A DNA stretch of 64,000 bases from Psilocybe cubensis (Eukaryota), in NCBI GenBank assembly GCA_017499595.2, contig CM039009.1:62001-126000 (forward strand). Direction: 5' to 3'. The stretch's first letter is position 1; every line of letters starts with the position of its first letter. Made by a program: the position numbers and the translations under genes. Below the pieces are notes generated by a model. It was given only the letters and a program-made list of their open reading frames with translations, had not been told where the DNA came from and made no database searches. Positions 41,070-64,000 of the stretch are shown here, one piece after another.

Positions 41070-43320
41070 TACGCCCTCCAGGCATTCCCTGGGAATGACT
41101 TTTCTTCGGTCCAGCCTTGGAATAAGGTTGAAAGCGTCGTTTCGGATTGGTAATCGAGTTGAGTACGAACTGATTGACTGACTTCATCTGCCTGACATTC
41201 GAAATTGAAGCTGAAATTTCCATCGCATTCTCGATCTCGGCGTTGGAAGGGAAAATAACTTCGAGAGGGAATCGCTTGGCAGTCGGAGGAGTGAGGACTT
41301 TGCCCTCGACGTTGAAAATCGTGAGGCGTGCTTTCGGGTTGGGATCCTCGTGTAAATAACTGATGAACTCATAATAACCGATGGGCAATATGAGTCGATT
41401 CGCGTCAGACTTGAGGGCTTTGTAAGCGAATGAGATATATTCCTTCAGTTGCGCGGCGTGAATGACATGGAGCATGCCGGCCGGATCGAGTATACCATAT
41501 TCGTAGCGTGACAAGTGAAATACCGTGGCAAAACCGTGCGCAGGGACCCGGAGAATATCGATGCAAGGTCGTCCCTGCAAGTCATGCGGAAGGGTGGTGA
41601 AGAACATCTGCGACATGTCGATTTGGTCGTGGTTGATTCCCGATTGACCTTCACCCGATGCGGGGGTCACAACGTTTGCCGTCGTAGGTGCGACAGGCGG
41701 AGTAATATTTGCAACGGTAGGTGTTTGGGTAGCGATCGTCGCGGCTGCAGCCGTGGGCAATTGAGTGACCGGCTGCGCTGGTGCAGGTGTCGGCATTAAG
41801 GTGGCCGCCGGTGCGGTTGGAACCATTGTGTCCGTGGGAGTTGTGCCAGACGCCGCTGCAGGACTTTGCGAATCTGGTGAGATATCCATGTTGTTGAACG
41901 AGGTAGTGAGATTAGAAGTCGTGGTGTCGGCGTGTGACATGTGAGCAATGAATACAGCCAGGTAAGATGAGTGGTGTGAAATAGAGCCTTCAGTATGTGA
42001 ACTGTAGGATTTATATATCGCTCTGGTGATTATTTCCTCATCTAATATGGTCATTAATCCGACAAAGATTTGTGGGTCGTCTGGTGTATCTTTGCGGATT
42101 TCTCTAGAAAGTTCGTTAACTGTCTTGGCACCTTTTGCCTCTAAGTATTCTTCAAGTTCCTGTAAGTGTTTCACTTCAGTGTATGGGAGCCAGCTCTTGT
42201 CTCCTGACCTCCAAAGTACTTCAAATATAATGTTATTACTGTCTTTACTGTGTGAGACGATTTTCTCTACTGCCCACTCGCCCTCCAAGTCTTCATCACT
42301 GAAGATTTGACCGTCCAGACGACCTGGAAACAAGCGGTCATCATTAGGTATATGAATCCGTAGCAAGGACGCGTGAAATACGTCATGCACACCCCTTTTT
42401 CGTAGGTTGGCCGAAATTTCCACGCAGTACGAATTGTTGCCGAAGTCCTCAATAATTCTATACGGTCCCACAAAACGAGGTGCTAGCTTAAAACTCAGTC
42501 CTTTAGGTAGTGTGAAATTTTTAGTGGAAACATACACAAAGTCACCTTTCTGAAATGGTGCCCGAGTTCGTTTCCTATTCGCATTACGAATTGTCTTTAC
42601 TCGAGACGCGATCATGCAATCATGTGCACGCATAATCGCCGACTTCATTCGTCTAGCAAATGCACGTACACCGGGAAATTCACTGGGCTGATTAGATTGC
42701 CACAAAAACGACCTAGGCATACGTCCCATGTTGAGAAAGAAAGGCGCAAAACCTGTACTCTCTGATCGTGCCGAGTTGATTGCAAATTCTATTGCTGGTA
42801 ACTTCTGTACCCAATCCTTTTGATTCATAGAAATACAATGCCGGAGCATCTGCGCCACTGTCTTATTGGCACGTTCAGTGGCGCCATCACTTTGCGGGTG
42901 GTAAGCACTGGACATTCTCAATTTAGTACCAATCAGTTTATGAAGCTCCTGCCAAAATTGACTAGTGAACCATTTATCACGGTCACTGACAATTGCATTT
43001 GGCAATCCGTGATGCTTGTAAACCTCAGCAAACACCAACTCCGCAATATCCTTAGCTTTGTAATTCATACGGCCGGGAACCAGGTGTACCATGCCAGTGA
43101 ATAAATCAATGATTACGGTGATCATATCAAATGATCCGTCTCTATTCTCTGACACGGGAAGCGGGCCCACAAAGTCTATACCTATAACTTCCCAAGGTTT
43201 TCTGTTCAACTCCAATGGATTCAGAAGGCCGTAGGGCTGCTTATGACTATCTTTCCCTCGCATGCAAAGTGTGCAAGATTTGCAGAAGCTGTCAACATCT
43301 TTAGCTAAGGAATGCCACCA
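41065..43320 (-). CDS. pol: Gypsy pol, 3' half: integrase (CC, DDE core, GPY/F), chromodomain, long C-terminal extension
   Basis: WWHSLAKDVDSFCKSCTLC, IGIDFVGPLP, IVSDRD, SAYHPQSDGATERAN, PRFVGPY, VFHASLL, chromodomain EWAVEKIVSH...FEVLW. Confidence 0.95.
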   Translation of the reverse strand, partial: WWHSLAKDVDSFCKSCTLCMRGKDSHKQPYGLLNPLELNRKPWEVIGIDFVGPLPVSENRDGSFDMITVIIDLFTGMVHLVPGRMNYKAKDIAELVFAEVYKHHGLPNAIVSDRDKWFTSQFWQELHKLIGTKLRMSSAYHPQSDGATERANKTVAQMLRHCISMNQKDWVQKLPAIEFAINSARSESTGFAPFFLNMGRMPRSFLWQSNQPSEFPGVRAFARRMKSAIMRAHDCMIASRVKTIRNANRKRTRAPFQKGDFVYVSTKNFTLPKGLSFKLAPRFVGPYRIIEDFGNNSYCVEISANLRKRGVHDVFHASLLRIHIPNDDRLFPGRLDGQIFSDEDLEGEWAVEKIVSHSKDSNNIIFEVLWRSGDKSWLPYTEVKHLQELEEYLEAKGAKTVNELSREIRKDTPDDPQIFVGLMTILDEEIITRAIYKSYSSHTEGSISHHSSYLAVFIAHMSHADTTTSNLTTSFNNMDISPDSQSPAAASGTTPTDTMVPTAPAATLMPTPAPAQPVTQLPTAAAATIATQTPTVANITPPVAPTTANVVTPASGEGQSGINHDQIDMSQMFFTTLPHDLQGRPCIDILRVPAHGFATVFHLSRYEYGILDPAGMLHVIHAAQLKEYISFAYKALKSDANRLILPIGYYEFISYLHEDPNPKARLTIFNVEGKVLTPPTAKRFPLEVIFPSNAEIENAMEISASISNVRQMKSVNQFVLNSITNPKRRFQPYSKAGPKKSHSQGMPGGRM

Positions 43321-43633
43321 CATCAGTAAATCCGGATTTTCGGAGGTAACTCAACGTATTGTCCTGCCAACCGGATGTAGCATCAAAGTGGGCTGTAGAC
43401 AGTATAGCGTCATGTGTCATCGGCGGGATGCTCCGTTGAGCTCTGTAGCATTCCAACATTACTACTGCGAGCTTTGGATTTTCCTAGCTATCTCTATGTA
43501 CGATTCCAGACTTAGGAGAGTTTGATGTCCAATGTGATTGGTCTCAGTAAAGCTCTTCAATCATATCAAGCAATAAAATGTACATTTTTAAAGGCAATTA
43601 AGTGTCTATTTACAATGTAGTATCTTGACCCTA

Positions 43634-44184
43634 TTAATGATCCTGACATTCTCGTATGAGATCCTGCCCATTACTAAGAAAGTGTAGAAACAAAGTAGTT
43701 ATCACTGTGACTCACCTCTACCGTTCGAATATGAATCTGGCCGTTGGCTATAATGGACATCCCTTGGGTCAATATGTGCTCGGGGCTGCCTGAGTCTGCA
43801 TCCCGAAGTGTCTCCTCCTAGTTATCTTAAGCAAGAGTATCAACTTGAAACTTGAAGAAACAGAAAACTCACGGCTCGTGCTTTGAGCCACTGGTCACCC
43901 TCGGTAATCTTGGCTTTAGCCAACGATAGTAACCTTGGGTCCAGGGTGGTCCAGTTAATTTCGTTGAAAAGGGCCAGGATGGCCAGTATCAGCCTGTTCT
44001 CGGTCAAAAGGACCATTTTTTGGGTCTGCTCAACTAACTGAGCCATTTCCAAGTCGTATTGCTGTCTTTGAGAAGCAAGTGAGGCGGCCTCTGGGAAAGT
44101 TGTAGGATGTATTAGATCTGGGAAAGTAGGGGCCAATACTTCTGCTTCGATTCGTAAAATTTCCTCATAGCTGATGATTTGCAT
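43634..44184 (-). CDS. Small helical hypothetical protein (element cargo), 3 exons
   Basis: MQIISYEEILRIEAE...WLKARA, GTGAGT intron, EETLRDADSG...IRTVE, GTGAGT intron, DLIRECQDH*. Confidence 0.55.
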
Positions 44185-44428
44185 GGTGTGTGATACGCTC
44201 ACTTTGTCGTAGTTGGAATTCAAGCTGAAAACAAACTTTGCGGGTATAAAAATTCTTCAGGGGTTCTGTATACGTAAAACAAAGTTCTATAGATTTTTCT
44301 AGGCTAGTCTAAGAAGATGCCTATCTAACTGAATGCGGGAGGAGCGCGCGTAGTGGTGGCAAGCAAAAGAGTGATTATTGAGAATGCGTACTACATGGCG
44401 CGGTCGTGAAAGTTGAAACTTATTGAGA

Positions 44429-45620
44429 CTATGTGGCAGTTGCAGCACTCTCACCAAAGGCGCATTTGCCGACCCAGAGTCGCCATTGCAAGGCTTGTGC
44501 GAGGGCACGTTCGCAGCGACCAATTTCACGAGGTGGGAGACCAGATAACCTTGCCCAAGCACGGTTAGAATAACACTTTTCTTGTGAAAATTTGGAGGCC
44601 AGGATGAGGGATGCCAGAAAGGCTCTACGGGGACACAGGAGGGGAGATGGCAAAGAAAGGGTGGTGGAAAGAGGAGCCGTTGAGACCTGCACATCTACGC
44701 TGGACAGAGAGTCTTGTGGATAGATGCACGATTCAGCCAGATCTTGTGAACCAGAATCGGCAACACGGAATGTTTGCATAGAATTGTCAATGAAATTATT
44801 GATGATGTTGATCTTGCCGGAGTTCTCAAGAGCAGTAAGCTCAGCATCCATCGCCAGCTCTTCTGGGGTAGCTTTCTGAATACTGCTTTTGGGCTGAGCA
44901 TAAGAGCGAATGCCGATGTTTTCCTCTTGCAAAATCTGTGGGACCTTGGGACGAATGGATTCTAGATAACATAGTGCTATCTGCAGTACGTTTTTAGATG
45001 TCCTTGAGTGGCGAAGGACTTTATAAACAAAAGACTTGAGGGGTAATATCTGATCGGATTTGGTGCCCGAGGCAAGCAAGAGGGTCGGGGAAGGGTTATG
45101 GCCGGATACGGAGGGATGACTGTTGTGTGGATGTATTGGATGTGTATGAGACGCTATGGATTGCAAATCGGAAGAGATCTGCTTGGAAGTTGGACGGGAA
45201 TGAGTAGGAGGAAAAGAGCTACCCCCTACTTTGGCGGGGGGTAGGAACACGGAAGGAATATCCTGAGGGTGCCAGATCTCGGACAAGGTGCTGACAGCTT
45301 GATCTGCAATGGAATTTAAAAAATAAAGTGAGTATCTCCGGCAAGGTGGGCGCTAATTGAGGACAGGACAGACCGGCAAGCCTTGAAAAAAATTTTTGTT
45401 TAGAAGAAGAGGCGCTCTGGGAAGAATCCTTTGGAATTTGCGCAGTGGTGGGTGGAATAGATGAGTGAGAACAACTTGATTCTGCAGAAATGAGACGGAT
45501 GGAGGGGTATTCAGTAGGTAATGATACAGAGGCATGGCAGGTATGGATTGTGGGAGAGAGGCCAATGCTTTCCTCTTGCAAATTTTGGGAACCTTGGGAC
45601 GAATGGCTTCGAGATAACAT
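44429..45620 (-). CDS. Pho80/Pcl (Clg1-like) cyclin-box protein, 373 aa, one intron 45304-45373 (element cargo)
   Basis: DQAVSTLSEIWHPQDIP, FVYKVLRHSRTSKNVLQIALCYL and SPLLCPRRAFLASLILASKFSQEKCYSNRAWARLSGLPPREIGRCERALAQALQWRLWV. The start codon is uncertain. Confidence 0.85.
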
Positions 45621-45965
45621 AGTGCTGTCTGCAGTATGTTTCCAGATGTCCTCAATCCTCAAAGGACTTCAGTGGGTAGAAATAGGGAGGGAATGTCTTG
45701 AGGGCGCCAGATCTCAGATAAGGTGCTGACAGCTTAATCTGCAATGGAATTGAAAAAATAAAGTGAGTATCTCCGGCAAGATGGGCGCTAATTGAGGACA
45801 GGACGGACCGACAAGACTGGAGGCGAATTTTTGTTTAGAGGAAGAGGCACTCTGGGAAGAATCCTTTGGAGTTTGGGCGGTGGTGAGCGGAAGATGAGCG
45901 AGAACGACTTGATTCTGCAGAGATGAGATGGATGGAGGGATATGCAGTAGGTGACGATGATACAG
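45230..45965 (-). repeat. Tandem partial duplication (~435-bp period) of the cyclin 5' exon/intron
   Basis: AAAATAAAGTGAGTATCTCCGGCAAG.TGGGCGCTAATTGAGGACAGGAC occurs at ~45321 and ~45756; there is also a second ILQTALCYLEAIRPKVPKI copy at ~45575-45645. Confidence 0.85.
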
Positions 45966-46112
45966 TGTGAGAAAGCGGGACTGGTGAGAAGCGGCTGTTG
46001 ATATTGATCCGAGTCGTCTTTGTGTACAACGAGGCCGGCGTGTTGGGTGATAATTTGAGTGGCAATGTGCATTAGGGATTGAAAACTTTGTGGGTTTCCT
46101 GAGGTGGATATG

Positions 46113-49100
46113 TTATGATGACAGGGCCAAATAGAGTTCTTTGTCAAAATATTTGTTTAATCGGAACTCGGTGCTAGTGGAATGACTGTTATGTGTAGTA
46201 AGGCTTCGCCTTGCCTTCTCGCCCATCTGAGGGACCAGATCAACCAGGGAGCGTATTTGATTCAATGGTAAAATTCCACCCATAATGGTGTTATCTGTAC
46301 GTTGACTTCGTTTTAATTTATACATGCCGGTTATTGGCTCTGGGTAAGGTCCACGGATCGCAGAACCTAGAGACTGTGGCTGATTTAAAACCTCAAAACG
46401 TTGGACGTATGCGAGAAATCTTCCAGTAATATCGGGAGACACAGTACTGGGTGTCTCTCCGACAATGCGAAAAATAATACGAATGTTGACGACAGAATGG
46501 CCTACAATATTGGCTGGTCAACGGGGTTCGGAAAAAAGTCACAAAGAAGTACTACCTTGAAGCCCGCTGCGAGGCCACTCCTCAGATTCATCCACGTTTA
46601 TGATTGCTGAATCGAAGTATCCAAAAGGATGTTTGTTAGATGGCGGATATGCATTAAGTGTGACTGCCTCCAGGATCTCATGAGGGTATTGGTACGCAGT
46701 CGACTGTATACGGACCTTATGCCATACCTCAAGTTTTGAATACGGCAACGGACAACCGGGAGGAGAAACACGCCTGCCAGTTATCCCCTTGATGTGATAA
46801 CCTCGAGAATTGGTCTGTCTCGGATTTGATTCCTTATTGATGAGTGACACATAATCGGCAATTGCTGGTCGTAGGTCGGGAATTTTAAAAATGCTCGCAA
46901 CCTCGTCGATATGCAATCTTTTGGAACTAGCATCCCTAGATAAATGGGCAACAACGTTTTTGCTGCAAGAAAATGTTCTGTAGGGGACTGGGCCTTCCAA
47001 TACGCCACGCTCATAGAGACTAGCTTTGTAGAAGTAATCCACAATGCGATTGGACTTTGCTGATTGAAAGGTTGTCATCGGCATGATTGTTGAAAGAAGT
47101 TCTGACGTTGTGTCCATCACAACCTCGCCGTTTTCCTCCCCCTCATCCCCCTCCTCCTGCTCCTCCTCATCCGTAATTGTTGCAGAGTGTATAGCCCGAA
47201 AATCAATCCTCATTTCTCGTATAGCTGTAAACAAATCGAAATTGCGCAATTTGTCACGACGATCAAGGTATCGACAAACTTGAGGCTCGTATCTTTGATT
47301 ATTGCTGGAACTGGAAGGGGCTTTGACCACCTCGATATGTGCATGCTCTGTCGTGTCTGCAGACCATTGGATTGCACATCCATTTAGTCTAATTGCGTGT
47401 ACTACACTTTGCAAAAACTCGAGTTTTGGAATATAGAAATTATCGATTGGGTTGTTTTTTTTACCTCGACGTGCTCCCGCGTCAAGGATGGCTTGTTTAT
47501 TGGCATGGAAATCTTGCAGTGCCTGCTCAATTCTGAGACACATTGCCTCGGAGATTGTTTGAGATTGTGCGAGATACCGAAAGTCCATCAGAGACCGGAT
47601 GGCTAAGATAAAGGGTGTACTGACTGTGTCTGCAATGAGAGCAACAATGTATCGCTGAACGTCCCGATGTTCCCTACCGGTCACTTGTTTCAAGGAAGAA
47701 ATCCCTTCCTTGAAGTGTCGGAAACCAGTGCGGTGCTGTAAAATCGAAAATCGAAAATCCAATTCGGAACCTCCGACTGCAGCAATGCACCATTTTGCAT
47801 CATGATCCCAGAACATCTTGTGCCAGTGATGAAGGGGTTCAGGCGTAAGGAATGCAGAAGGATCAGACAAGGGCCAATCTCTCCAAAACGGTAGGTGAAC
47901 CCCATTGAGACGGTGCTTTTTGCTTTCTTTTAGATATGGTTCGAGATGATTAGGGGGCTTAACATTGTTGATGGCCATGATGGTGTTGATTGTATGATCT
48001 GCAGTTCGGGAAGGGTGGCGAAAGGAATCCCCAAACGTCTCGTATTGTGCCAACGTCACAGAGGATGTGGATCCTGCGACGCAAGCCGCCAGAGCAGATT
48101 CTGGAGTATCAACGATAAGGGCAGCAAGCGGTGTAAAGCAGAAACGATTATTCCCCAATGCATCTGCCATGGTGGTTCCCACCCTCGCAGTTTGTTTGAC
48201 CGATTCTAGAGCAATGTCCATGCACTGGTGATATAGCCGTGCTGCCATCATCCCATTCACAGCTTTGGAGCGATGAAGAAACTTTGGTATGGGAAGAAGA
48301 ACAAAAAGAAGGAATAAATGATTTGACGATTTGTTTCTAACGTTCATCATTATGTTGGCAATGCTGATAAGGCCAGGGTAGGCGACACGGCCTCCGGTCA
48401 TGTTGGAAATGTTGGTTTTATCCGTGGAAATAATAGGAGGTACAAGTGTTGCTCCTTTTGGGAGCTGGTCCTTGGGAACCTTGTTATACTGTCGTCAAAC
48501 TTGGACAAAGGCATTGCTACTAACCTGCATAAAATGCGCAATGTCACCGCTAAACCACTCAGTGTATACCCGCATCATCTCGTTGCACTTGTCGAAGAGC
48601 TTGAATGGGCTAAAGTGCATGCTATCTTGGAGCAAGGGACTGATGAGAAGCGCCTTGATACATTCCAATCCATCGCGGTAAAAAAGCGTTAGCTGATTTT
48701 TGCTTGGTATTTCTGGTATAATCGTTTGACTCTTCCACTGCGGACCAGAGGGAAGGATCTCTGCCCGGTTGCGTAGATCTTTTGCCGACTTGTAGGACAA
48801 GTTGAGTTTTTTTATCTATACGGGATCGACTCAGCTGAAATAAATAATGATGGGAATGTACGCTCAATTACCAGTTCAAGTTTCAAAAAATCATTCAGCA
48901 TTCCTACGCTCATGTCAGAGCGAAGTAGGAACAGGGAGAGCTCCCATTCATCTTTCGAGGCAAAAGGATAGTACAAATTTTCCGCCCGCTGGGGTTCGAA
49001 TTGATCCTGTTTGAGCTGATCCATGAATGTAAGGCCTGTTCCAAATGCTCTTCCAGCCCCGTTATAATCCTCCTTCACGTACGGATAGTTGTATTTTGAT

Positions 49101-49417
49101 GCCTTGGGGGGTGGGTCATCTTCCATCTCTGATGACGCGCCAAGAAAATTGTCAATATAGTCCACTTCCATAAAATTACCAATTTCGGGAGAAGGGTCTC
49201 GAGATACGGGGGTTGCTGATCTAGATGTAGAGCTTGAACGATTGGACTGAAAATGCATAACGTTCTCATATTGAAAACAACATGCCGATTTTGGTTGATT
49301 GATGTGATTTTGGACATCTGCATGCTTAGCAAATGGCTTGTTGCATCGAGGACAACGCACACAGATTTCCTGAGTTCTCTTGCCCTTGCCCTTTCCCATG
49401 TTGAAACAACGACTCAT
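46113..49417 (-). CDS. Plavaka-type (CACTA/EnSpm-related) transposase, multi-exon
   Basis: N-terminal CPRC..H..C zinc finger, YYPFASKDEWEL, LSYKSAKDLRNRAEILPSGPQW, LFYRDGLECI, RVYTEWFSGD, GATLVPPIISTDKTNISNMTG, IVDTPE, PEPLHHWHK, WSADTTEHAHI. No stops in the exons. Confidence 0.9.
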
Positions 49418-49888
49418 ACAAAAGCGAAGATACGAAAAAAAAACTGATAATGTAATGTTCAGTAACGTGCAGTGGGTCTATAAATGTTATCTGATTATGT
49501 CTCCGTTAATACAAACAAATTTCACATGGGTTAGTATTCAACCAATCCGTAGTACAATCCAAGGAGGGCTTCGGAAGAGCTTTACTGTATATACGCACCA
49601 GAACAAAGACACTAACACATTTTTTGAAGTGGGTGGAAGAAGCATCAACAAACGTAAGTTAGTTGATTTCATTGACCTTGATGATAAATTCAAACGCACA
49701 GCAGTTACAGTAAAGCCAGAAGCTTTCATCCCAGCGAGTATTTGCGTATTGGTCTGGCGATACGAGCAGCACACAACTACAGATAATAAAACAATCGTCA
49801 TTATGTTACAGGACATACACGCCTTTCAGTACTAAATAAAACATGGCATGTATGTAAATCAAGATGTGTGTCAATGTGTTGTACAATA

Positions 49889-52800
49889 TCAAAGTCGCCG
49901 TCGTTTAGAAGGCGGAACAGACTCTGATTCTGATGAAGAGATAAGCATTTGCGACGTAAAGGCATAATCGAACACACGTACTCGGATTTGTGCTCTCCAG
50001 CTTGACTTTCATGCCATCCAGATACAGTTTATCCCTCACACTCGTACCAAGTTCCAGAATCTCCTTGGGAGTTCCTAGTTTGTGACGTGGTTAGTGAATA
50101 TCCAAAGGCAGACACTGGTCCACCTACTCAATTGCGTTGAGGAATCCGCACAGGCATCACAGTCAATGAGAGTGATTACGGGTAACTTGAGCATCTTTGG
50201 GACCGAGGAACGAGGAAGCTGGTCGATACTGCGACATATAACCTTGTTCAATTCTCCGCTGCAGACGCCCTGAAGCTGGACAAAAAGCAAACTGGTGTCG
50301 GTACAGCAAGGGGCACCACCAATGTTGTTATGTTTGGCTTCTGCGTCGTAGGCTAGAATCATACGGGCATAGCGGCAAAGTATCATTTCATGGAACTTTT
50401 CTGTCGCCATGATATTTTGTGCATCCTTGTTTTTGTCCGTCTCAATCATGTAGTGGATGGACTTCGTGCGATGACATAGCCACTCTAGAATAGCCAAGGC
50501 TTCGCCACGGGCAAAGATGCACGCCTTGCGCTCTTCGTCGCTCAGGCTGTTGGTATCCCACCGCATCCATGCGTCTAACTGTGCCGAAGTCTTGGTGGAG
50601 AACATCTGATCGGGATTTCGATAGGTCTCGTAGTCGAGCGCATTTGCCAAGATCATGCACACGCACAGAGCTATCAAGCTCGAGTATCCGGACTGCGTAC
50701 TGTAGAATGGGACATGGTACATTTCATAAAAATCTGAGAGAAAATAGAAGAAAAGAATCAGATATCTTGTAGGAAACGGTAAAAAACCTCATACCTTCTG
50801 GGTCGCTGTCACCTTCAACCAAAACCTTGTAGAACCAATGTATGGTTTGCTGCAGGAAAAATCGGGACGTTGAATGATTCGTATTCGTTGCCCTGTATCC
50901 AGCGGTAAAACAGTGAATGATTCCTGTCAGGGTTTCTTCGAAGGAAGTGGAGGAGTAAAAATGTCCGCCACGGCAAACCACTGAGGAGATAGAATACGCC
51001 ATATGTAGAGTATTCGGTCTCATGAAGCTGTTTTTCAAAGTAGCGTCAATATAATCAAATGGGTAGGACATTCAAAAATCACATACAGTTCTGACTGGTT
51101 ATCGAGAACAATCGCCTCGTAAATCCAGTCTTGGTGGTGCGTTTCCCCGTAATCCAGCTTGTCTCCTAGAAATACACGGCGGTCAGAAGAAAGGTCAACA
51201 TCCAACCGTCTGGGATACATGATAATCCACAGCTTCAGTCCATGAAGAGGTTGGATGAAGGAACAGAAACCATTGGCATCGATATGGATATCTGAAAATG
51301 CCCCCTCTGTAGCTACGAGTCCCCATGACATATCACCAAATGGGACGGGGGTACTATACTTCCAGCTACCAGATGTAGCCCGAAGAGCAGCCGCCTCAGT
51401 ACTCAAGTCAAAAGAGTGAGCGCCTGCATGAGGTAAAGGGATGTCGAGGGCATTGAGGATCTTTCCTCTTTTGCCTTTCATCCTCGCTGCTTCCATGACC
51501 TGAGAGAGGGACCCACGCTTAATCCTCTCGATGGGGTTAGACGACATGGTCGACATATCTGTTACGGCCATTAGCATGAGACGCAGAAAGAAAAATCAAA
51601 ACATCGAAGAGGAAACACACCTTGGATTGACCTGGTGCTCGTCATATCACCCATATGGCGACGTACCTGGCTGTAGAACTCGTCGGAGCAAGTTGAAATA
51701 GACTCCTCTTGAGAAGGAGACATAAGGACGACGTTCCTTTCAGAGAAAGACTCCATCAGATACATGGATTTCGTGGTGCTGCGGTCGAATACCGCAAAAC
51801 ATGATTCTTCGGGACGTGCTATGTGCAATGGAACTCCATCGACGTAGTCACTCTCGACCAATTCCAGAACCCTTTCAATACGATCCACGTCGGCTTGACT
51901 CTTGTTTGGAGAATAAATAAATGACGAAAAAATCAATATCGAGAATGACTTACATGGGCAACAACGCAGAAACTTTTAAGTTGGCCACGACCGTTGTAGG
52001 TGGACCAAACTTTGGTGCCATACACCTTCTCCGGAGTGCTGACGACATCAAGGGTGGTGTTGCTGTCGTACAGATCGACATCAATACACAGGTCGTCGTC
52101 CGAATCAAATGTGTCGGTAGCCTGCGTCGGCTTGCGTTTGGGAGGCCGCTTGGAAAGGCCCTGCCGGCCCTTCCCTTTCCCTTTCTGAGAGGAGTCAGCC
52201 GTGGTGTTTTTGCTCCTGTTTATCTGGGAAACAGGAGGAATCCTCAAAATAAGAGGAGCAGGAGGTGCGTTCTCCCCCTCCTTTTCGCCTTGGCTGTCTT
52301 CCAATGTATTCCTCTCCATGTCTGAGGAATCATTGTTTTGCTCTGGGCCTACCCCCTCTCCATCGACCGACATTCTGTCCTCCTGGACTGGTGGAACATC
52401 CCCTTGCCCCTGCTTCTCGGTCTCATTGTCCGACGAACTGTCGTCTGGCCTTTCCTCCTCACCATCTTCTGACATTCGGTTCTCCTCGTCGGGTCGTTCT
52501 CCGTCTTGCCCCTGCTTTTCGCCCTCGTGAACTTCCGACATACGATTTGCCTCGTCAGAAGACCCTTCAGCTCCTTGTCCAGCCCCGCCGTCTCCCAAAT
52601 TTTCTGGACCATTGGTATGTGGACCATCCTCTATTTGATGGTCGACATCAGCTTGCTCCGGATCGACGTTCATCTCACAATCCCCTGCAGTTGAGGGCCC
52701 AGTATTCTCAGTCTGAAGTAGACCAGATCCAATATCATCACTCCGCGGCAAACCAGGTTGCTCGTCCGTGGGCACATCCTTGCCAGCCACCGAAGATGTG

Positions 52801-54452
52801 TCTTCCGGAGGCTGTATATCTGAGGTAGGGACCGTATTGTCCCCGTTCTCCTGTTGACCCATGCTGACATCCTTGCCAGCCACTGAAGACGTGTCTTCCG
52901 GAGGCTGTATATTTGAGGTAGGGACCGTATTGTCCCCGTTCTCCCGTTGACCCATGCTGACCATTTCCGTCGTGTCCACTTCGTGATCATCGTCACCCTC
53001 CGCGTCTGCGTCGGACCCTTCACAGGTGGTTTTTTCACCATGATGGGAAACGGTCTGAAGTTGAGCTGTTTTAAACGGATTTAAATCATGTAATTGACGC
53101 AGACTTTGCTTATAACTTACCGTGTGGTTCAGTGCTGCGCCTTGCTAGGTTAGAATTTGCTGTAACCTCGGCGCTGCTCGTTGACGCTGGCCAATTATTA
53201 GTTTAAATTGTTATTTTGTTACAGTACGTAGAACACACATATGAAAAAGTGAAACGCGGGATCTTGTGCAATTACCCGCTCGCATTCCATCCAGCAGTCT
53301 GAGATAACAAGTTTATATAAGGCTGACTGGATGTCGCAATTTTGCGCTGCAATGATTTTCCAAATTTCCATCTCCACTTCACGCAGAACACGGCGGCGAC
53401 AATTACCGAGCGCTTTTGAGGCCTAAAGGAGTGCGTTAATCCAAGTTAAACTGGGAGGATGTGGATACACCTACTTTAAGCAGCTGCTCCCGGTCACATT
53501 TCTTAGAATACCAAGATTTATTCACAAAAAGAAGGATGGGGGATATGAAAAGGGCGACATGCAGAGGAATTTTTAAATGAGATGGCGTGACCTCTGAGAG
53601 GAACAACGCAGCATCAGGATGGCCGCTTGCACTAGGGTATGTTGAGCAGATTGTATCAATGAATAGAGGAAAGAAAACTTACTAGAGATTTGCAAGAGTA
53701 GCCGTGTCCGTTGGAATGTCTGGTAGAACGTGTTCATCGTCCTTCATACCGCGCATTCCTGACAAGATTTGGTAGTGTAGCGAGGCGCAGTACACATTCC
53801 CGATTATTTTCCCCACAACACCCTTGAAGTGGTTACGCGCCAGACAGAGTAATAGCGTTGATTCCGAGGGCCCGCCCTGGGTGAAAGCGGATGACGGCGT
53901 GTCACTGATAGAAGGGGTGTTGATGTTTCTGTGCAACTTAGAGTCGGCTCTGAGGATGCGCTTCCTGGCAGAGCAGAGCATTGCCGGCCAGTCCTTCAAG
54001 TCATCTACAAGCTACAATAATTGTTTGAAAATTAAGAATTAACATTGAGTGACTTCATGATCGCATACCTTGAACCGTGAAAATATTTCCTTAGTTCCTG
54101 TGCTGGCCTGTATTTCATTCAGGGGCACGGTCACCGGCAACGATGGTCCAAAGGCTGCTGGCCACAACGCTACGAGATCGAGTAGACGGTATGCTGCAAA
54201 TAAGCTACCCGCCTGCTCCCATGTAGCCGAGGTTACGCAGGGTGTCTCTACGATGCTGTTCTGAAGGGCAGCCAAGCTTTGCCTATACTTGATGGCCGCT
54301 CGCATGCTCGATGATGAAACATCGTAATTCAAAAAGGTGAAGTCCTCATATCGTCGGAGGAAATCCACCATCCTCTACAGAAACTTGATATTAGTACCAT
54401 AAATGGCAATCCAATTAAGACCTACGCGGAGTGGGTGCGACTCTGGCAACAT
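49889..54452 (-). CDS. Large multi-exon JmjC-domain 2-oxoglutarate/Fe(II) dioxygenase with acidic disordered linker (element cargo)
   Basis: WGLVATEGAFSDIHIDANGFCSFIQPLHGLKLWII (HxD) and FMRPNTLHMAY...CRGGHFY (distal H); 93-bp internal tandem repeat at ~52775-52960; C-terminal PSKRRRL NLS-like. The exon joining and the 5' end are inferred. Confidence 0.75.
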
Positions 54453-54741
54453 GTTTTCCAGAGTCTGACGAACGACCTGCGTTTCGAAGGGAAACGCCAG
54501 AATTTCTTCAGCTTGGAGTCGGGCAACGGGGGAAATCTTCTGGGCTTGCACTACAAAACTTCAACGTCTCACCCTGCATTCTATTTCTTTGGGTACTTAC
54601 TTTTTTTTGTGTGTTTTTTTCTGGTGTCTCAAATTTTCAACTAGATGAATTTTAACTGAACGAAAACTATTATAGAGTGTCTAGAGTATTGTCTATGTCT
54701 ATTTTATTAGAATGTATGTTAAATCTATGGGGAGGGGTACT

Positions 54742-55008
54742 ACGCTATGACGAACGGAAAGAAAAACAATCAAGTTGGAAACACACTATTTCCGGAGCGA
54801 TTCTTTAGGGTAGGTTTCCCGTCCTGAAGTCACGAGTTGGTTAAAAAAACGCCCCCTTACATCAGCCGCATCACGGTGATGCGGCTGATGTAAGGGGGCG
54901 TTTTTTTAACCAACTCGTGACTTCAGGACGGGAAACCTACCCTAAAGAATCGCTCCGGAAATAGCGTGTTTCTCACCATATGTTTTCTCTTTCCGTTCAT
55001 CATAGCGT
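54742..55008. repeat. Long perfect palindrome centred on 54875
   Basis: 54786-54874 is the exact reverse complement of 54876-54964 (89-bp arms, 1-nt spacer: CATCAC-G-GTGATG); degenerate pairing continues out to 54742/55008. Confidence 0.95.
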
Positions 55009-55112
55009 CTTATCATAGTAATAGGTTGTGTAGTATCTAAAAATAAATTATCACAAGTTAAGATGATAAATTAAGTGAGATGAACATCGATTAACAGTCT
55101 TTAAGACCCACA

Positions 55113-57472
55113 ATGTCTAGTTATAAACGCAGACGACTTGACAGCCTAGGCAACCGCACAGTGTGTACTAATCCAACCCTCCATCTAATCACTAACTTCA
55201 GGGAAATTTAATTATGATCTCAAAAAATCAGGACATTAATCCCTTCATAGACATTGAAGCAGCGGTTTCCGATGATGATGAAAGTTCGGAAGAGCTTGAT
55301 TATGAAGGGGGCCAACTACGTATGTTCCAATAATTTACATATATTCTGCTCAATATGTACTGATGCTAATGGGTTCTGACATACAGTGAATGATAACGAT
55401 GAATACTCTGAGGATGAGGAACGTGTTGCACACTCTCGGCTATATCATGCCATGCAAAATACAGATAACGCTGATGAATGGAGCGATTTGTTGCCCATGC
55501 TTCTGCCTTCACGCATGAAAATTCGTCCTGACAATGATATAGAGCCATCTAGTTCACGAGAACTTATACAGAAATATGGCAATCCCCAACCAGGAGGACT
55601 TGGTGATAATAATTATATGCCTTCCGCGACTGATATCATGTATGAAATAGGTTGCAAGGTACGCAAAAATAATATAAGTCTTCAGTCAGCATTTATTGAT
55701 CACCTTACGAGTGATAGGTTGGACGCGAAGAGGCCGTCGCTTTCAAAATTATGCAGATGTCAACGAACCCTACATTTCCCATCATCCTTGCCCGGTCTGT
55801 CTTCGCTCAATCCTCAATTCCTGGGAGAATCTACGTCGAGGCGCCATCAATGCAACATGCGCATACGTTAGCCTGCCTCGTTAGAGAGCTTAATCCGACA
55901 CATTTAGTTAGGCTATCCTTGGAGAGATGTATGGAGATCCTATCTCATCCCCCACCCTCACGCCCTGAAGACCAATCGTGGGTCAAGGTTGCTGGAAAGC
56001 GTAAGGCTTGGACGACCTACGCAAATGCTACCGGCCTTGTGTTCACATTCCAGGGTCGGAAAAGTGTTGTTCTTATCCCCAGACCTCCGGACAACATCAA
56101 GAAATCGCACCTCGACAGGATATTCCAGGATGGATTTATTATCACGGATTTCGACGCCATCGATCTCAAATATCTTTCCAATGTCCTCCCAACATCGTCC
56201 GAGTTGGAGCAATTTTGCGAGTGTCCATTTGTAACGACGGAGACCTTAGCGCAAGCCTCGAAAGCCATCTCCATGACTCGACTGAAACGATATAATCGAG
56301 TCAAAATTATTGGTGGAGAATACTTAGGTCTTTTTGGAACGGTCAAGAGTGTTTCTGACGCTGAGGTGGAAGTGCACATCCCCTCCCAAGGTATAACACA
56401 AGCAGTTGCACTACACGATCTACGTGCAGCTTTCCAGATAGGCAATAGTGTTGAAGTCGTTGAAGGGGATCACAAAGATCTCCATGGATGGGTGTCAGAC
56501 TTTGATGGAAGATCTGTTTGTATTATCGCCCCAGAGCACGAACGCGAAGTAGGTGAACTGTCATTCTCTTTGTCTCAGTAGTGTTCAACACATTTTTCAG
56601 GTCATTGTGCCCATCCACACAGTCATATTCTACGTCCCCCCTGCCCATGCTACTCTTCGCCCGCGAAAGCGTCATTCGTCAAAGCTTGGAGAAAGAGACC
56701 ACAACGACGTCTATATAGGTTTGAGTGTCATCGTTGTCGGGAATAATACATTCAAGGGGTACTATGGCATCGTTAAAAGCACTACCCCCGACGGCTTTGC
56801 AGACGTTGAGCTGGAAGCTCGTAACCAGAGGGTGGAACGTATTAAAATATCACATTTAATTATACAGTATGTGGTTTCACTTGATTCGTTGACTGTCAGG
56901 TGCTTACTGACATTGTTTCAAGCAACCGAGAACATATAAATTCCGCTCAAGACCCCGGGCCTTCTGGTGGAGCAACTCCAATGCCGTCCACAGTAGCAAG
57001 TTTTCTGTCTCCTGCATGGAATCCGTATTCAGCAATACCTGTACACTCGGCGGTGGAAATCGCAGAACTACCCTCAACCGTCGCTCACTGGCTAGATACG
57101 AAATACGATAAGCTGAAAGGATTACGATTAAAAGTCGTAGACAAATCCAAGGGCGACCATCAAGTGGCGATGGAACTTCTCAGCCTTACCGACGATACTG
57201 CCCACCTAGCATTACTGGGACGTACACTGACATTACCGAAATCAGTGTTGTTTCCAATTCATCCTGTAAAAAAGGACGACTTCGTTACACCGCTTGAGGG
57301 CGATTCAATGGGGATTATATTCAGGATACGATCAATAGACAAGGATATTTGCGTTGTACATAAATATCCCGTTACTCGTATGAAACGCGGTGATACATTC
57401 CCAACTTTTCCGACAACATCTTTGATTCAAATCTTCCCCCCGTCCCGTGGTGTCAAAGTTGTAAATATGTAG
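55113..57472 (+). CDS. Spt5-like NGN + multiple-KOW protein (element cargo), multi-exon
   Basis: KRRR...INPFIDIEAAVSDDDE acidic N-terminus, YEIGCK/VGREEAVAF and SVFAQSSIPGRIYVEA (NGN), KOW motifs RVKIIGGEYLGLFGTV, SVEVVEGDHKDLHGWV and SVIVVGNNTFKGYYGIV, plus GATP...SPAWNP. Confidence 0.8.
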
Positions 57473-57639
57473 GGTGCAGCATTACTTGTATCTCGAACAC
57501 GGACTTGTAGACATATACGGGTTTTATGTCATTCTATTTAAGTGTATTTCGGCAATCAACAGTGCTAATGGTTCGTAATGTGTTGATCGTCTTGAACTTA
57601 AGCCACCACCACCACACCAAATTGTTGCCTATCTTTATC

Positions 57640-57995
57640 ATGAACCATTCCAATAGCAACAACGCTTCGCAACCTCAAAGTCGCCGCCTCCCTAGCATAC
57701 CCGAAGAGGCAGAGTTCTTCGTTTTAGGTCTATTTTCATGTTTTAATCCACCTTCCTCTAGAATCAAGGCATAGAGGCCGTTAAAAAGGCTCTTGACCAA
57801 TTTCAACTCACTGAACAGAGGTGTCTAGAAGTTCAGGCAGAGCTACGTTGTTATATGGACGACATTATGCGAGCATATAAATCCAATGAAGATCTTCTGT
57901 TTGAAACCCAGCTCGAAATCGCCCGTCTACGGGTATCCCTCATTAGTCGGGGAATACCTATTCTAATGCACCCTCAGGATAATCCGCGATCATGA
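57640..57995 (+). CDS. Small coiled-coil hypothetical protein (element cargo)
   Basis: MNHSNSNN...IPEEAE plus a downstream frame GIEAVKKALDQFQLTEQRCLEVQAEL...; the splice junction is uncertain. Confidence 0.4.
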
Positions 57996-58266
57996 TAGGT
58001 GCAGTCTTTTCCCCTCTGAGATGTAACTTTACTTAACTCTAAGTAGGACATGGAATCTGACTATAATGTATATGTGATATATTGTAGTAGATAGGGGTAC
58101 TGTTTCAGTACCTGTAATTTCTATATGGCACGATATATTTTTGACTGATGTCCGTCGCCTTAAATTTTGAAAAGAGGCTAATTTCGCATACCTCCGGATC
58201 GTAGCTTGACATAATTCACCACCCCTTATCTCTATTTCTGCATTACAACCGTCAAACCAGCCCAAT

Positions 58267-61008
58267 ATGCCACCTAAAGGATCCAAAAAGAAAAAGGCGG
58301 TTGTCAATGCCACGGTTGAAGGTATCATCTATATATCCTCATTACATCCGCATACTTAATGTTTTATCCATCTAGGACAAGAGGTTGAACAGGGTCCGAG
58401 CTCCGTGGCAGAAAACGAGCCACCTCAGGCTCCTGAAGCAGGTCTGTACTAGCATTTTCTTTGTTGAGATTCACTGAACTCCTTATTAAAAAGACCCCAA
58501 TGGCCGTCCTATCCGAAGCACCCGTGGTCTTGGTGGAGTAAATGCTCGGCAGGAGAAAACATCTAACATCATTTTTATTGACTTCGAGAAGGCTGGGAAG
58601 AGGAAGTCAAGGGCCGCCAATGTGGATACTAGCGCCATGCCTGAAAATGAGATGGCGCCTCCCTTGAAGAAAACTCGCAATGGGGTGAGTCTACTGTTCT
58701 AATCTTAAATTTGCTATCTTCCAAGCACATCTAGGTTACCGTTGTGCCGCATGTAGGTCCCCCTATTCAAATGCAACCAAGGCCAACGCCTTCAGTTGCT
58801 CCTTGGGATGTCCAACAAGTCCAACCAAGCCCACGACAATCTCAGGGTGCCCCCCCTCCTGTCCAGATCCAACGTGCAGCTCAGAGAAATCAGGAGCACT
58901 CAGAGCTTGATCATGCTGTCCAAAGACCCACTGCCCCCATCCAGCGCCCCGCTGCTCCGGTACAACAGCCAGCACATCCTGTCCCGCGCCCCGTACAACA
59001 TGCAGCACATCCTGTCCCGCGCCCTGTACAACACGCAGCAAATCCTGTTCAGCGTTACGCTGCCCCTGCGGTAGAGAATTCTGTCCAATACTACGATGCC
59101 CCCGTACAACAACCAGTGCATCCTGTAACACAACATGCCCCCATACAACAGCCAGTGCATCCAGCAGCCTATAACGCCCACCAAGAGGCTAGCATCAGCC
59201 ATCAAGACGAGGAGGAGCAACAAGATTACGAAGGCATAGAGCAGGAGGAAGATGAGGAGGAGGAAGAGGGGGATAGTGACGGTGAAAGGCGATCTGAGGA
59301 AGCATCAGGGGACGAATGCATGCAAGGAATTGATGAAGAGAATATTGGGGATGAAGAAGCTCTCCAATATGTCGACGGTGATGAAGGTTACGACGACGCG
59401 GGTCAAGATGATGAAGAGCCTGCTGCCCAGCGTTGGTTTAACTCCACCTTTATGTCGTGTTTGCTTACCACCTATGTTTGACAGTGGTTGATGAAGTTTC
59501 CGATGATGAAGAGGAGAGGAGAGCAAGGGCATTGCTCCGCCAGCCTTCCCCCCATGTAATCATTTCTCTGCTGTATTTAATGTCTAGCTAATGTATTATT
59601 GATATAGGTTGTGGAAGTAGAGGATGTTCTTCAAGAACACCGTCGTCGTAATCGGGCGAACAAGCCACCTCGCCCTGAGGCATTGCGCAAGGCGGCTGTT
59701 TCGCAAGGAGCCGTATCCCAAGGTTTGACAAGGGAGAACAACGAAGCATCTGACGATGATGAGGTGCTTGGTGAGGCACACATCGCTCATAAGAAGTCCA
59801 GTACTTCTTCTGCTAGGGAAGTATCCAAGCATTCAGTTGCATCCTTTACTGGTTACTGGAAAGATGTGCTCAAAATTGCACGCAAACTGATGTGCCTGTA
59901 TGTAGTAGAGGAGGTCCCCTTTCCCACTCGGGAAAATCACTTATTAGTCGCCGATGGATGTGTGAAGATGGCAGTAACCGTGTTTGAAAGAATGAACACG
60001 GATAAAGTGTTGCCTGATAGTAAGTTCTGTCTTCTGTGATTTTAGTTAATTGGTTTACATAACTTTGCAGAGAAAAAAATGCTCCTAGACAGGAATACCG
60101 CCGTAACGGTATATTTTTAGCGTGTTCTTTTAAGGATATCGTACTAACGTGTCTGTTCTCATTAGGCATTTGTCTACGCGTCAACCTTCCGGGGAAGACT
60201 GAAGACGATGATCAGACCCCTGGTCAAAAATGCGTATGGCCTCGAAGTCCCGTCGGAGGTCATCGCCGCGAACCCCAATATGTTTGAAAATCAGATGGGG
60301 GAGATCGAATACATCAAGGACAGGGTAGCATATTGGCTACTCAATGGTAAATACCACCGGGGTGTTGCCAAAACCCGAGTGAGTTCGCCGTCCATTTTAC
60401 CTGGCTTACCACTCATTGATTTGTTTCCAGTATCACGATGTCCCATTTGGACATCCTTTTGTGAAGAAGATCTGTCTGGACTTCTTCTACCATCCTACAA
60501 AAGGGGTTGCAGTCCCCATCAAAGGTCTGGAGACAAAGACGGATTTCTTCAAGACATCGCTTCCCCACAAAGCATTTGCGCTTGTGGCCAGTTGTGTAGT
60601 TCTGATTTCTCTCCTGCTATTGGCACTGCCTTGCTAACAAGCATTTTGCTGTAGATCCACAACTGTCTTGAGGAGTGGAGGGATGGGATTGACCCTGCAA
60701 GAGGTGGTCCGTGTTCGGGTATTGAATTCAAGGGAGAGGAGTACTCCCTGAGGTATGATGCCTGCATGTTGGTTGCAGCAGAGGCAGAGAAGGATACCTT
60801 GAACCAAGGTCCTCGCTTGGCTCGCTTATGTAGGGAAGTGGCTGAGGAAGGATGGTGTGTATCTTTTTTTATTCATTTCTTTCTTTGCATCATTTAGATC
60901 TCCATAATCAGTGCTATTATGAGGCCTACGAAGAACCCCCCCAACCCTTATAGGATGACTCTCCATTCTATCCCACAGGAGGAACTAGATTACGGTCCAG
61001 AAGGGTAG
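58267..61008 (+). CDS. Multi-exon nuclear protein, probable DUF6532-type, with P/Q-rich and acidic regions (element cargo)
   Basis: MPPKGSKKKK start, PVQ/HPV repeats, then YWKDVLKIARKLM..Y...EVPFP, STFRGRLK...RPLV..AYGL, PFGHPFV, FALVASC/IHNCLEEW.DG; many GT-AG introns. Confidence 0.7.
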
Positions 61009-61276
61009 TTGGGTGAATGAGCGGGGCAGCTGCCGGGTGTGGATTAGAAGATACCATATTTAGATCGTCACGTATTAATAGTTATGCATCTACTAATAGA
61101 AACATGTTTGGTCCGATCCAAACATAGATTATCTATTTTTAAAATTGCCCATTTTAGTCAAAAATGGTTCGGTTTTCAGTGTGATATTGGCACTTGCAGG
61201 AATAGCCACACAACACTATACAAATGAAAGTGGATACTATATATGCCTTTGTACCTATTTGCAGTGTGTTATGATG

Positions 61277-61368
61277 TGCTACAAATCTGTGGTAGCATGC
61301 TACAAATCTGTGGTAGCATGCTACAAATCTGTGGTAGCATGCTACAAATCTGTGGTAGTATGCTACAA
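61277..61368. repeat. Subterminal tandem array, 4.4 x 21-bp TGCTACAAATCTGTGGTAGCA
   Basis: Units at 61277, 61298, 61319, 61340 and a partial one at 61361; each unit is itself TGCTAC...GTAGCA. Confidence 0.9.
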
Positions 61369-61594
61369 TTTGTATGTCAGTTGTATACAGAGGGGTATGG
61401 ACCATGGTAAGCATGCTACACGCCGCTACACAGCACTCGCGTTACAATACAGATCACTACAGAGTACCATGTCACGTTGGTACCAAGCTACAGGTACATC
61501 AGTGTGTGTTACCCAAATGGGACCGTTACTATGGGCACTACAGAATTACGTATCACTACGGATCATTACCTACTTGGCCCCGGTATTGCTGATG

Positions 61595-64000
61595 CATACG
61601 ATTTCTCTAAGGTAACTGTAAGTTTTACGGGCGCCTAAATGTGCCAATAGACAATGAGCTTCCATTATCACAAACTCACGGATAGATCTGCCTTCTTTAG
61701 TGCGTACATTAGGTACACATAAGACTTCTCTACCGTCCTGCTTGAGATATAACAGTCCAGACGATTCATCAAGCCTGAAACTCTTGAATTCTTTAGGTCT
61801 CTCAACAATAGGTCGAAATAACACATCCTCAACATATCTATTATTTATTTCATTAACAACATTTATACCATTGAGATCCTCAAATACATTCATTGGGTCA
61901 ACATCAGGCAATGTGAATGCGGGTGTAGTATCATGATTGCAGACCAGTTCCTGGTCAGCAATACTATCTGTTTGGGTACCCGTATCAGTCTTGCCTTGTC
62001 TAGGAGGTAACCGAATGACTAACCTTTCATTTTGTTCCGCAGACACGCCCTCCGTTCCTTCTTTTGGTGACTTAACTTTAATTAGGCCACGCATACGAGC
62101 GGCGAACTCGTCTGAAGTCTCAGGCCGTCCCGTTTCGGCACCTTCACGTTCTCGAATCCGTTTTGATCTCCGTCCCACAAAGTTTGGGTTAAGCGCCGAA
62201 CATTCCGCTTCCAAACCAACCAAGACAGGGTGCGTTATCGCACTCAATGTGACTGCCATTGAATCCCCATTCTCTGGTGAGTCATACTCAGTGTATTCCG
62301 ATGCCGAACGGACTGTTCCTGGCGCATCATTGGAGTAAATCCTGGATAGCGCATCACTAAGAATATTTTCTGTTCCCGGGACGTAAATAACCTCAAAGTC
62401 AAACATCGCCAGTTGTTCCAGCCACCGAGCACGCCTTCCGCTGCTAGCACGATCAATATCTCGATGACTCAAGACTGTAACTAATCCCTTGTGATCTGTA
62501 AACCAACGGAACTTCACACCAAGTAGTAAGTCCCGGTATCGCATCATAGTCTCTAACCCAGCTAACATTTCGGCTTCGTGAACTGGATAGTTCTGCTGCG
62601 CAGGTGAGAGTTTTGCCGAGTAAAAGGCTGCAACTGGTGCAGTCTTCCAATCCTCTCCCTGACTGATGACGCCAGCTATGCCAGTAACACTGGCATCTGT
62701 TATAACATTGACTGGTGGCGCTCCTTTTGAGTAATCAAGCGGGCGCCTATGGTGATTACGAAAAGCGCTTGCGCGCTGCTTTATCTCATCAAATGCACGT
62801 TGGTGAGTGGGTTCCCACCGAAAGGGAACTTCTTTACTCGTTAAAGTGTGTAGAATTCCCATCGGAATTCGCACACTCTCAATATCATCCGCAAGATAGC
62901 TTGCCGCACCTAAAAATCCACGCAATAACTCGCGATTTGTGGGTGTTTTCCACTTCAGAAGTGCGTCAACTTTATGCGGGTCCATTTGGATGCCCTCATC
63001 GTCGACAATCCGGCCTAGTATCTTGACTTTCTTGCACAGGAAGTCTAACTTGTTAGCTGATAGATAAAACTTCTCTTTCTGTAGCACATCTAAAACAATT
63101 AAAACATGCTCGATGTGTTCTTCCAGAGTGTCTGAATATATTACTAAATCATCAAGGTAAGGGTCCATAAATTTGCCAATGTATGGAGAAAAAATATGAT
63201 TCATCAGTGACTGAAATGTTGCAGGTGCATTACAGTCCCCTTGCTGCAATACATGCGAAACCATGTTTCCATTGGGTGTTGAAAAAGCCGTCTTCCACAC
63301 ATCAGCAGGTTCGATTCGGACTTGCTCATATGCATCTTTTAAATCTATTAAACTACGATACGGTTTACTTGATACTCGTCTCATGATGCCGTCGATGTCC
63401 GGCAAAGGGCTTGTAAGTTTCCTTGTATTATTATTACGAGCTCGTAGATCTATAACAGTCCGCAGCTTTGCCGGCTCTCCCGGTTTGGCAGGCTTTGGAA
63501 TGAACATCATAGGTACGGTATTCCTTGAATTTGTAATTTCCCACCGTCCTGTTCTAATGTAATCACTTCGTTTCTCAACCCACTGGGGCATGAATGCCTC
63601 GGGGCATCGTGACGGGCGCCATGGGTACTGTACTTCATCGTTTATTAAATCTATCTTATGATTAATTGCTCGAAGAGGTGGTAACGGGGTCTCAGCGGCT
63701 GTTTTACACAGCGGCGCGGCCTTATGTTTCAAGAAGTCTCGAACCTCGTCGAAATTTTCTTCCCTAATCCGAGCTGCTCTTGATTGTAAAGTACGAACGG
63801 CAGATCCTTTAATTGGTAACGCCGTGTTGCTACCAATAATTACTCGAGTTGGATTAAACCCAACTAAAGCTTGATGCTGGTACATGAATGGAGTACCCAG
63901 GATCAAGTCATAGCTGGATAAGTTAATTATATCAAAGGCTCTAACCTCATTGACGCCTTGATACGTCAGTTGGGCGCTTGTTTTATAATTTACCTTCGAT
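61595..64000 (-). CDS. pol: Gypsy pol, 5' half: end of protease, RT, RNase H, start of integrase zinc finger
   Basis: LILGTPF, RTVIDLRARN, LIDLKDAYEQ, QQGDCNAPATFQ, YLDDLVI, ITDASVTG, QQNYPVHEAEML, FTDHKGL, NILSDALSR, EAHCLLAHLG; the ORF runs off the window end. Confidence 0.95.

Follow-up and report, generated by a model that had tools for sequence, protein, structure and literature searches.

A mirrored upstream module as a candidate central control region of a PlavakaB-type transposon in Psilocybe cubensis

Plavaka elements are abundant in mushroom genomes and their ends have been defined only recently; to our knowledge, nothing is known about the control of their genes. The cis sites bound by element-encoded proteins coincide with a promoter region in the subterminal repeat/promoter regions of En/Spm (CACTA) elements and in the operator/enhancer (IAS) of phage Mu, which lies between divergent promoters. 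Transcription of the maize element MuDR reads inward. In herpes simplex virus, the origin OriL forms a long perfect palindrome to which an initiator protein binds. The terminal inverted repeats of MuDR (maize Mutator) carry the mudrA and mudrB promoters (part of PMC10401008), and in transposon vectors dual divergent promoters serve as a protection against silencing (part of PMC6842454). For PlavakaB, termini of the form 5'-CATCA..TGATG-3' and duplications of 2-3 bp are described (Kojima 2025, available part of PMC12730594).

The window analysed here, a stretch of 64,000 nucleotides of Psilocybe cubensis DNA (contig CM039009.1, positions 62,001 to 126,000), includes a PlavakaB-type transposon with a long palindrome between its divergently transcribed genes (Table 1). 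The closest known kinds are the MuDR-type repeat promoters (part of PMC10401008) and bidirectional promoters. Unlike MuDR, in which the repeats occupy the two ends of the element, the window has two copies that abut mid-element, face outward and are not transposition ends. As in bidirectional promoters and dual divergent elements of the UCOE type, a short gap separates divergent units, although ordinary bidirectional promoters are not long perfect palindromes. In contrast to En/Spm and Mu, the window arm lacks shared subterminal motifs, and binding of element proteins to it is only putative. Foldback CACTA-type MITEs, two of which lie in the window, resemble the palindrome in their long inverted arms and short spacer, but they have CACTG...CAGTG ends, clear 3-bp duplications and two window copies, all of which the palindrome lacks. 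Unlike OriL, the palindrome has nothing that suggests replication. A full-text search of the Plavaka literature gave no palindrome by title or abstract among the matches listed, and in the available part of Kojima 2025 (PMC12730594) the word 'palindromic' occurs once, in another context. A further search, on palindromes, bidirectional promoters and divergent transcription in DNA transposons, likewise gave nothing comparable among the matches listed.

Table 1. Positions of the palindrome, its motifs, the flanking genes and the host element (window coordinates except for the L009 repeat, which is given in those of its own contig).
Feature	Position	Strand	Size	Basis or remark
Left arm of palindrome	54742..54874		133 nt	repeat search
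Right arm of palindrome	54876..55008		133 nt	repeat search
Central unpaired base G	54875		1 nt	between arms
Perfect core, present copy	54786..54964		179 bp	89+1+89
Perfect core, majority of copies	54778-54972		195 bp	G at 54785
Motif GAACGGAAA	54752..54760	+		mirror 54990-54998; same order in L009, L001, L003, L004, L008
Motif TTTAGGG, telomere-repeat-like	54804..54810	+		mirror 54940-54946; also in relatives
Motif CGAGTTGG	54833..54840	+		mirror 54910-54917; CGAGTGG in relatives, same order
Motif CTTACATCAG	54856..54865	+		mirror 54885-54894; contains the terminal hexamer CATCAG; in both arms of the relatives' repeat
First clear exon, left unit	54039..54371	minus		ORFs
JmjC/cupin-like part of left unit	51035-51595	minus		Atlas lead alone, score 0.92
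Plavaka transposase gene	46539..49477	minus		PF18759 E 6e-64, DUF6830 E 3.8e-45 on 46539-48494
Spt5-like gene (NGN + KOW)	55113..57472	plus		Pfam; exons by tblastn of P0002
Host element, PlavakaB-type DNA transposon	43321..61594		18,274 bp	CATCAG...CTGATG termini
Target duplication CA	43319-43320 and 61595-61596		2 bp	
Integrase ORF	41065-43350	minus		one half of Ty3/gypsy pol
RT/RNase H ORF	61570-63999	minus		other half of Ty3/gypsy pol
L009 repeat arms	3075-3293 and 4233-4473			43 nt at 95% + 158 nt at 98% complementary

The host element fits PlavakaB in its termini, its duplication size and its Plavaka transposase domains. All 6 terminal bases match between the inverted ends, and more matches follow. 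The element cuts a Ty3/gypsy pol inside the integrase zinc-binding domain; excising exactly 2 bp yields a 208-aa open frame across the joined flanks, whereas 0, 1 or 3 bp give 110-120 aa. Both halves of this pol are still open, which indicates that the insertion is young. The subterminal stretches (43321-43720 and 61200-61594) carry TGTAGC(AT) and GCTACA motifs in opposite orientation, which look like candidate transposase-binding repeats, and a 21-bp tandem array of 4.4 copies (61277-61368) lies among them. Direct repeats occur in the left part of the element (45239-45457 versus 45674-45892, 88%; 44932-45021 versus 45580-45669, 81%). Elsewhere in the window are the two foldback MITEs, of ~650 bp each (21647-22312 and 32928-33571; duplications ATG and TAC), with internal sub-palindromes such as ATTGTGTTTGG...CCAAACACAAT, and three copies of a tRNA-gene-like unit (3817-3936, 18002-18124 and 22637-22744) that contains GGTTCAAATCC and probably an intron; these three units were not called by ARAGORN in its default mode.

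The ORFs with coding support are all on the minus strand to the left of the palindrome and all on the plus strand to its right, in agreement with the initial annotation. The left unit (50075-54371, minus) continues through its JmjC/cupin-like part toward the transposase. An annotated P. cubensis model, P0154 (1973 aa), which in another copy fuses the left-unit exons with the transposase, maps from 54173 to 46806 entirely on the minus strand, so that the strand divergence is real. The left unit also has an acidic low-complexity region and a 93-bp tandem duplication at 52774-52961. An in-frame stop (54375-54377, minus) is located between the first clear exon and a stretch resembling the N-terminus of the left gene of the metagenomic relatives described below, with which it shares PFET; the left gene of the host element family may have lost its original start. 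On the right, the ATG of the Spt5-like gene is placed by P0002, an annotated protein of another copy that is 97% identical. The Spt5-like protein is a divergent Spt5 paralogue in which an NGN domain is combined with several KOW domains. In a representative library, 268 relatives reach E <=0.001, whereas a word-based search gave only one match; relatives of greater length were not found by a word-based protein search.

Base-by-base pairing outward from G54875 bore out the earlier description of a perfect 179-bp palindrome with 89-bp arms and a single-nucleotide spacer. Over their whole length, the arms are 92% complementary by the repeat search, and this pairing gives 10 mismatches in 133 nt, which fall only at distances 90, 98, 99, 102, 103, 104, 107, 108, 112 and 124 from the centre. 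The outer arms had been called decayed; they are indeed imperfect, but only in a 15-bp patch (98-112), by one substitution (124) and by one change private to the present copy (90). Symmetry ends abruptly past 133 nt, and local alignment of the outer flanks detected none beyond it (58 of 300 shuffles do as well). The palindrome begins and ends as ACGCTATG...CATAGCGT, unlike the CACTG of the window MITEs or the CATCA or TGT of Plavaka, and is flanked by CT on both sides (54740-54741 and 55009-55010), a 2-bp match expected by chance in 1 of 16 cases. Folded as single-stranded DNA it reaches -147.9 kcal/mol, compared with -30.6 +/- 3.9 in shuffled sequences, none of which (0/200) is as stable. The palindrome lies within the 741-bp gap between the minus-strand ATG at 54371 and the plus-strand ATG at 55113. 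Its arms stop 105 bp short of the right ATG, and their distance to the left ATG is at least 370 bp; TATA-like AT-rich stretches are found directly outside both arms. These distances and the external TATA-like boxes suggest that the arms may be upstream elements rather than core promoters, which in the host element family may lie in the AT-rich flanks.

Several other structural accounts of the centre were considered. The outer arms hold TGACG and CATCA, as would be expected if two PlavakaB elements abutted at the palindrome; this was ruled out by the matching outer ends and target duplication of the 18.3-kb element, by the equal read depth of its two halves and by the absence of the partner ends from the window. 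A circle or head-to-tail junction was rejected, as its hexamers would point in the opposite direction. A central mini-element of 31 bp, CATCAG...CTGATG with TA on either side, is indistinguishable from chance, CATCAG being common.

The palindrome might have been a fold-back chimera of the assembly, a possibility the initial annotation had raised, and it was sought in reads. Public runs were aligned to 53400-56400, and sister copies were judged through the reads. In X16, a run of raw 151-nt Illumina reads, the centre base is covered by 125 reads. In another run (X2), contigs break symmetrically at 54807 and 54943, and between them a 61-nt contig (54845-54905), with 0 differences, is built of exactly the 31-mers that cross the centre; with 30 nt per side, it is one below the bridging rule applied. 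A chimera of one assembly would leave no centre-crossing reads or k-mers in other runs, and an assembly fold-back is thus refuted; the palindrome is present in the reads and in the sister copies they represent. X16 depth is ~520 on the flanks and 328, 190 and 307 in three bins across the palindrome, and at the centre it is 24-37% of the flank depth. This dip is read as a bias against snap-back fragments and could hide copies with a different centre; no alternative structure is backed by more than 48 X16 reads. At the centre base, 51 of the 125 reads have C instead of G, as reads wholly inside the perfect core fit either strand; flip-flop isomers, which this G/C mixture might indicate, were rejected in favour of mapping ambiguity. 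For work with short reads this is a caution: contigs break at the palindrome, and two thirds of the read depth is lost there.

The element belongs to a family of copies that are at least 99% alike in X16. The input of this run was ~1.6 billion letters, which, for a P. cubensis genome that we take to be about 46 Mb, corresponds to ~35x coverage and about 15 element copies; minor alleles occur at 3-26%, and these fractions together with the read depth suggest roughly 10-30 near-identical copies. Depth is ~520 on both sides of the palindrome, the two element halves being equal. Five window alleles occur in only 3-9% of the X16 reads. One of them, A54785, is private to the present copy: G is found there in 283 of 303 X16 reads and in the X2 contig, and this G pairs with C54965, so that most copies have perfect arms of 97 nt. 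C>T and G>A changes prevail among the copy differences in the X16 reads of 53400-56400, accounting for 14 of the 30 places listed, and copies of the metagenomic relatives differ chiefly at CpG sites, a pattern that suggests methylation-driven or RIP-like mutation.

Of the eight joints listed for the 3-kb stretch in X16, five touch the 267 bp. They include a deletion from just past CATCAG to 55035 (11 reads, both mirror readings counted), an arm repeated in tandem (9 reads) and a central insertion of 6 nt (16 of 145 reads). In a minor variant, 54566-54810 is shared at ~88-90% identity and is followed by three tandem units of TCTTTAGGG, as seen in 40 reads with a loose end at 54810. Left-arm-specific states are common to this ~12% diverged variant, while the inner arms show zero differences, which indicates that the inner arms are younger or homogenised. 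Joints that skip exactly 54742-55008 were sought at three or more reads, and none was found in X16.

The conservation of this arrangement was examined in metagenome contigs. A scan with a single Spt5-like protein detected no relative, and one with a 5-sequence alignment gave nine loci that encode an Spt5-like relative with 31-37% identity. Soil-metagenome relatives of the divergent gene pair share 25-40% protein identity with the window; they comprise one family plus one sublineage, whose left arm is off its contig, and a Pfam scan of their loci gave no match that places them in a Plavaka element. An inverted repeat is present upstream in all four loci that reach at least 1.7 kb in this direction (L001, L007, L008 and L009), the remaining five of the nine being too short on the upstream side to judge. 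In L009, the left gene and its counterpart in the window are collinear (tblastn E 8e-5, 2.8e-8 and 4.7e-4; pairwise E 8e-5). The L009 repeat edges are 59 and 58 nt from the start codons, and when aligned the arms extend to ~35 nt from both ATGs (3016 minus, 4531 plus). The arms of the relatives are separated by 60-940 nt, a spacer that would not extrude, suggesting that the mirror duplication is conserved and the hairpin is not.

Within each lineage the arms are 98-100% alike, whereas between lineages only ~35 nt of blocks persist. Independent evolution of the arms since a shared origin is thereby excluded, and they would have been homogenised or formed anew by repeated duplication; the 'ongoing homogenisation or selection' proposed in the initial annotation thus gains indirect support from the arm comparison. 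The L009 arms enclose a 66-nt unit that contains a CCAATTGG palindrome, an incomplete copy of the arm and ~750 nt between direct repeats. Comparable stretches are seen at L009 3300-4269 and in L001 and L007, with ~750-870 nt between direct repeats of ~105 nt (66-nt unit plus inner arm). The direct-repeat spacing differs among the relatives' copies (865, 983 and 881), and the inter-arm stretch may have arisen by partial tandem duplication or as a nested insert.

The arms of the window and of L009 have four blocks in common, GAACGGAAA, TTTAGGG, CGAGT(T)GG and CTTACATCAG, with their order kept. Among 1000 dinucleotide shuffles, 13 equalled the collinear chain of exact matches of the left half and 24 that of the right half, a moderate level (~0.01-0.02) from two tests that depend on each other. 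A common 10-mer over the whole intergenic regions is unremarkable, as 307 of 500 shuffles reach one, and weight is therefore placed on the order, the positions and the mirrored arrangement of the blocks. Seven of the nine loci have the right-arm TTACATCA block, and the other two lack that part of the sequence. In the sublineage locus L006, the gene is 86.5% identical to that of L001 and the inner block is 91.8% identical over 61 nt, while the adjacent outer arm is unalignable. In the window, L009 and L006 alike, 220-290 nt separate the block from the Spt5-like ATG downstream of it.

The best explanation of these features, which stands about an even chance of being correct, is that the palindrome is a mirrored upstream or promoter module of the transposon with concerted evolution of its arms. 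The central control region would be made up of a single module in two inverted copies, each copy facing one outward-reading transcription unit: on the left the JmjC-like gene followed by the transposase, and on the right the Spt5-like gene and its neighbours. Each arm would present GAACGGAAA, TTTAGGG, CGAGTTGG and CTTACATCAG in this order, about 230-290 nt upstream of the start codon that it faces. As the same ordered sites occur in each arm, the same factors would drive or license both units. Arm-to-arm conversion or repeated inverted duplication would keep the arms alike or make them so again, and in the host element family this process would have led to a near-zero spacer and a perfect core of 179-195 bp. 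The potential to form a hairpin or cruciform would then be a by-product of the history of the arms and not a conserved property. A symmetric bidirectional promoter serving both sides had been suggested earlier; this option gains support from the mirror repeat at the same site in the relatives, from its arms reaching ~35 nt from both start codons and from the ordered motifs. A promoter or upstream-activating function is what we infer, and the factors that would bind and the homogenising process are likewise proposed.

Alternatively, the palindrome might be primarily a docking site for element proteins, as a transpositional enhancer, as transposase-bound pseudo-ends or for Spt5-like loading, with gene control being secondary. 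The most conserved block, CTTACATCAG, holds CATCAG, the exact terminal hexamer of the element, and agrees with the PlavakaB terminus CATCA (available part of PMC12730594); moreover, the CATCAG block forms an inverted pair beside the centre both here and in the relatives, and the deletion joint breaks directly past it. However, CATCAG is a common word (48 in the window, 19 in the element), the number of 7-10-mers that the arm shares with the terminal 400 bp does not exceed that of control segments, and the subterminal TGTAGCAT repeat is absent from the arm. For a cut of the terminus type, the joint would have to lie on the other side of the hexamer, and the equal depth of the element halves argues that these are not mobilised separately. 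Docking as the main role is thus considered unlikely. A similarly low standing is given to a neutral structural scar, in which a recent inverted duplication or the repair product of a fragile site was fixed by a burst of the family and the symmetry has no role. Perfection would need no selection among copies at least 99% alike, the boundary at 133 nt is sharp, and palindromes are known to be unstable (part of PMC8053094), as the joints touching this one and its tandem-arm, deletion and insertion variants illustrate. Yet a scar would make the mirror repeat with the same blocks at the same position in relatives of 25-40% identity a coincidence, and inner arms that are identical, next to left-arm states common to a diverged variant, point to later formation or homogenisation of the inner arms.

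Read-through transcripts could form a perfect stem of 89-97 bp and serve as a source of hairpin RNA for RNA interference, either silencing the family or used by it. The predicted stem is very stable, and Mu killer provides a precedent of hairpin-driven transposon silencing (part of PMC3440606). An Rfam search gave 11 matches at E up to 1, weak ones to generic miRNA-precursor models, all of them far below gathering scores (best 40.1 bits versus a threshold of 90), and no family at threshold. Such a role is doubtful, because with transcription outward from the flanks neither unit would contain both arms, the relatives have long spacers, and the family, which is multi-copy and apparently recently active, does not seem to be silenced. 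Insertion of an independent foldback MITE into the ancestor of the element family, which the initial annotation had named as a possible refutation, is highly improbable. Such MITEs exist in this genome, the edges of the palindrome are sharp and CT is present on both flanks; nevertheless, a 2-bp flank match is expected in 1 of 16 cases, the ends differ from every type of terminus found here or reported for Plavaka, no second copy is found in the window and no X16 copy is precisely without the palindrome. In addition, the minor variant carries the left flank and the outer left arm as one piece (54566-54810), and the repeat of the relatives has the same blocks at the same site. Finally, a replication origin of an excised form, or else an assembly artefact, has an almost negligible probability. 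OriL is also located between a divergent gene pair (available part of PMC10541914), but the element is of the DDE cut-and-paste type and a Pfam search of 33 window ORFs, mostly in the element, found no replication gene; together with the non-extruding spacer of the relatives, this leaves nothing in favour of the origin or cis-replication element once suggested. The artefact is refuted by the reads and k-mers of independent runs that cross the centre.

If the reading as a mirrored upstream module is true, the palindrome would be the first candidate control region of a Plavaka element, with a defined set of four short candidate sites, and would illustrate concerted evolution of regulatory DNA within a mobile element. 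A more far-reaching version, which is very unlikely at present, regards the region as an element-encoded control hub that is kept symmetric by arm-to-arm conversion and docked by the transposon's own factors. Equally speculative, as part of the same reading, is the nature of these factors, which might be the Spt5-like NGN-KOW protein or, through the terminus-like CTTACATCAG, the transposase. If true, this would be a eukaryotic transposon counterpart of the logic of bacterial ops/RfaH or of the phage Mu enhancer-operator, and silencing-resistant transcription of both gene blocks would be coupled to transposition. For the mirrored module itself, a central mirror-symmetric control region would represent an 'inside-out' version of the MuDR design. 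With a JmjC-like enzyme and a paralogue of the Spt5 elongation factor encoded alongside, the element would offer a place to ask how a multiplying transposon escapes silencing.
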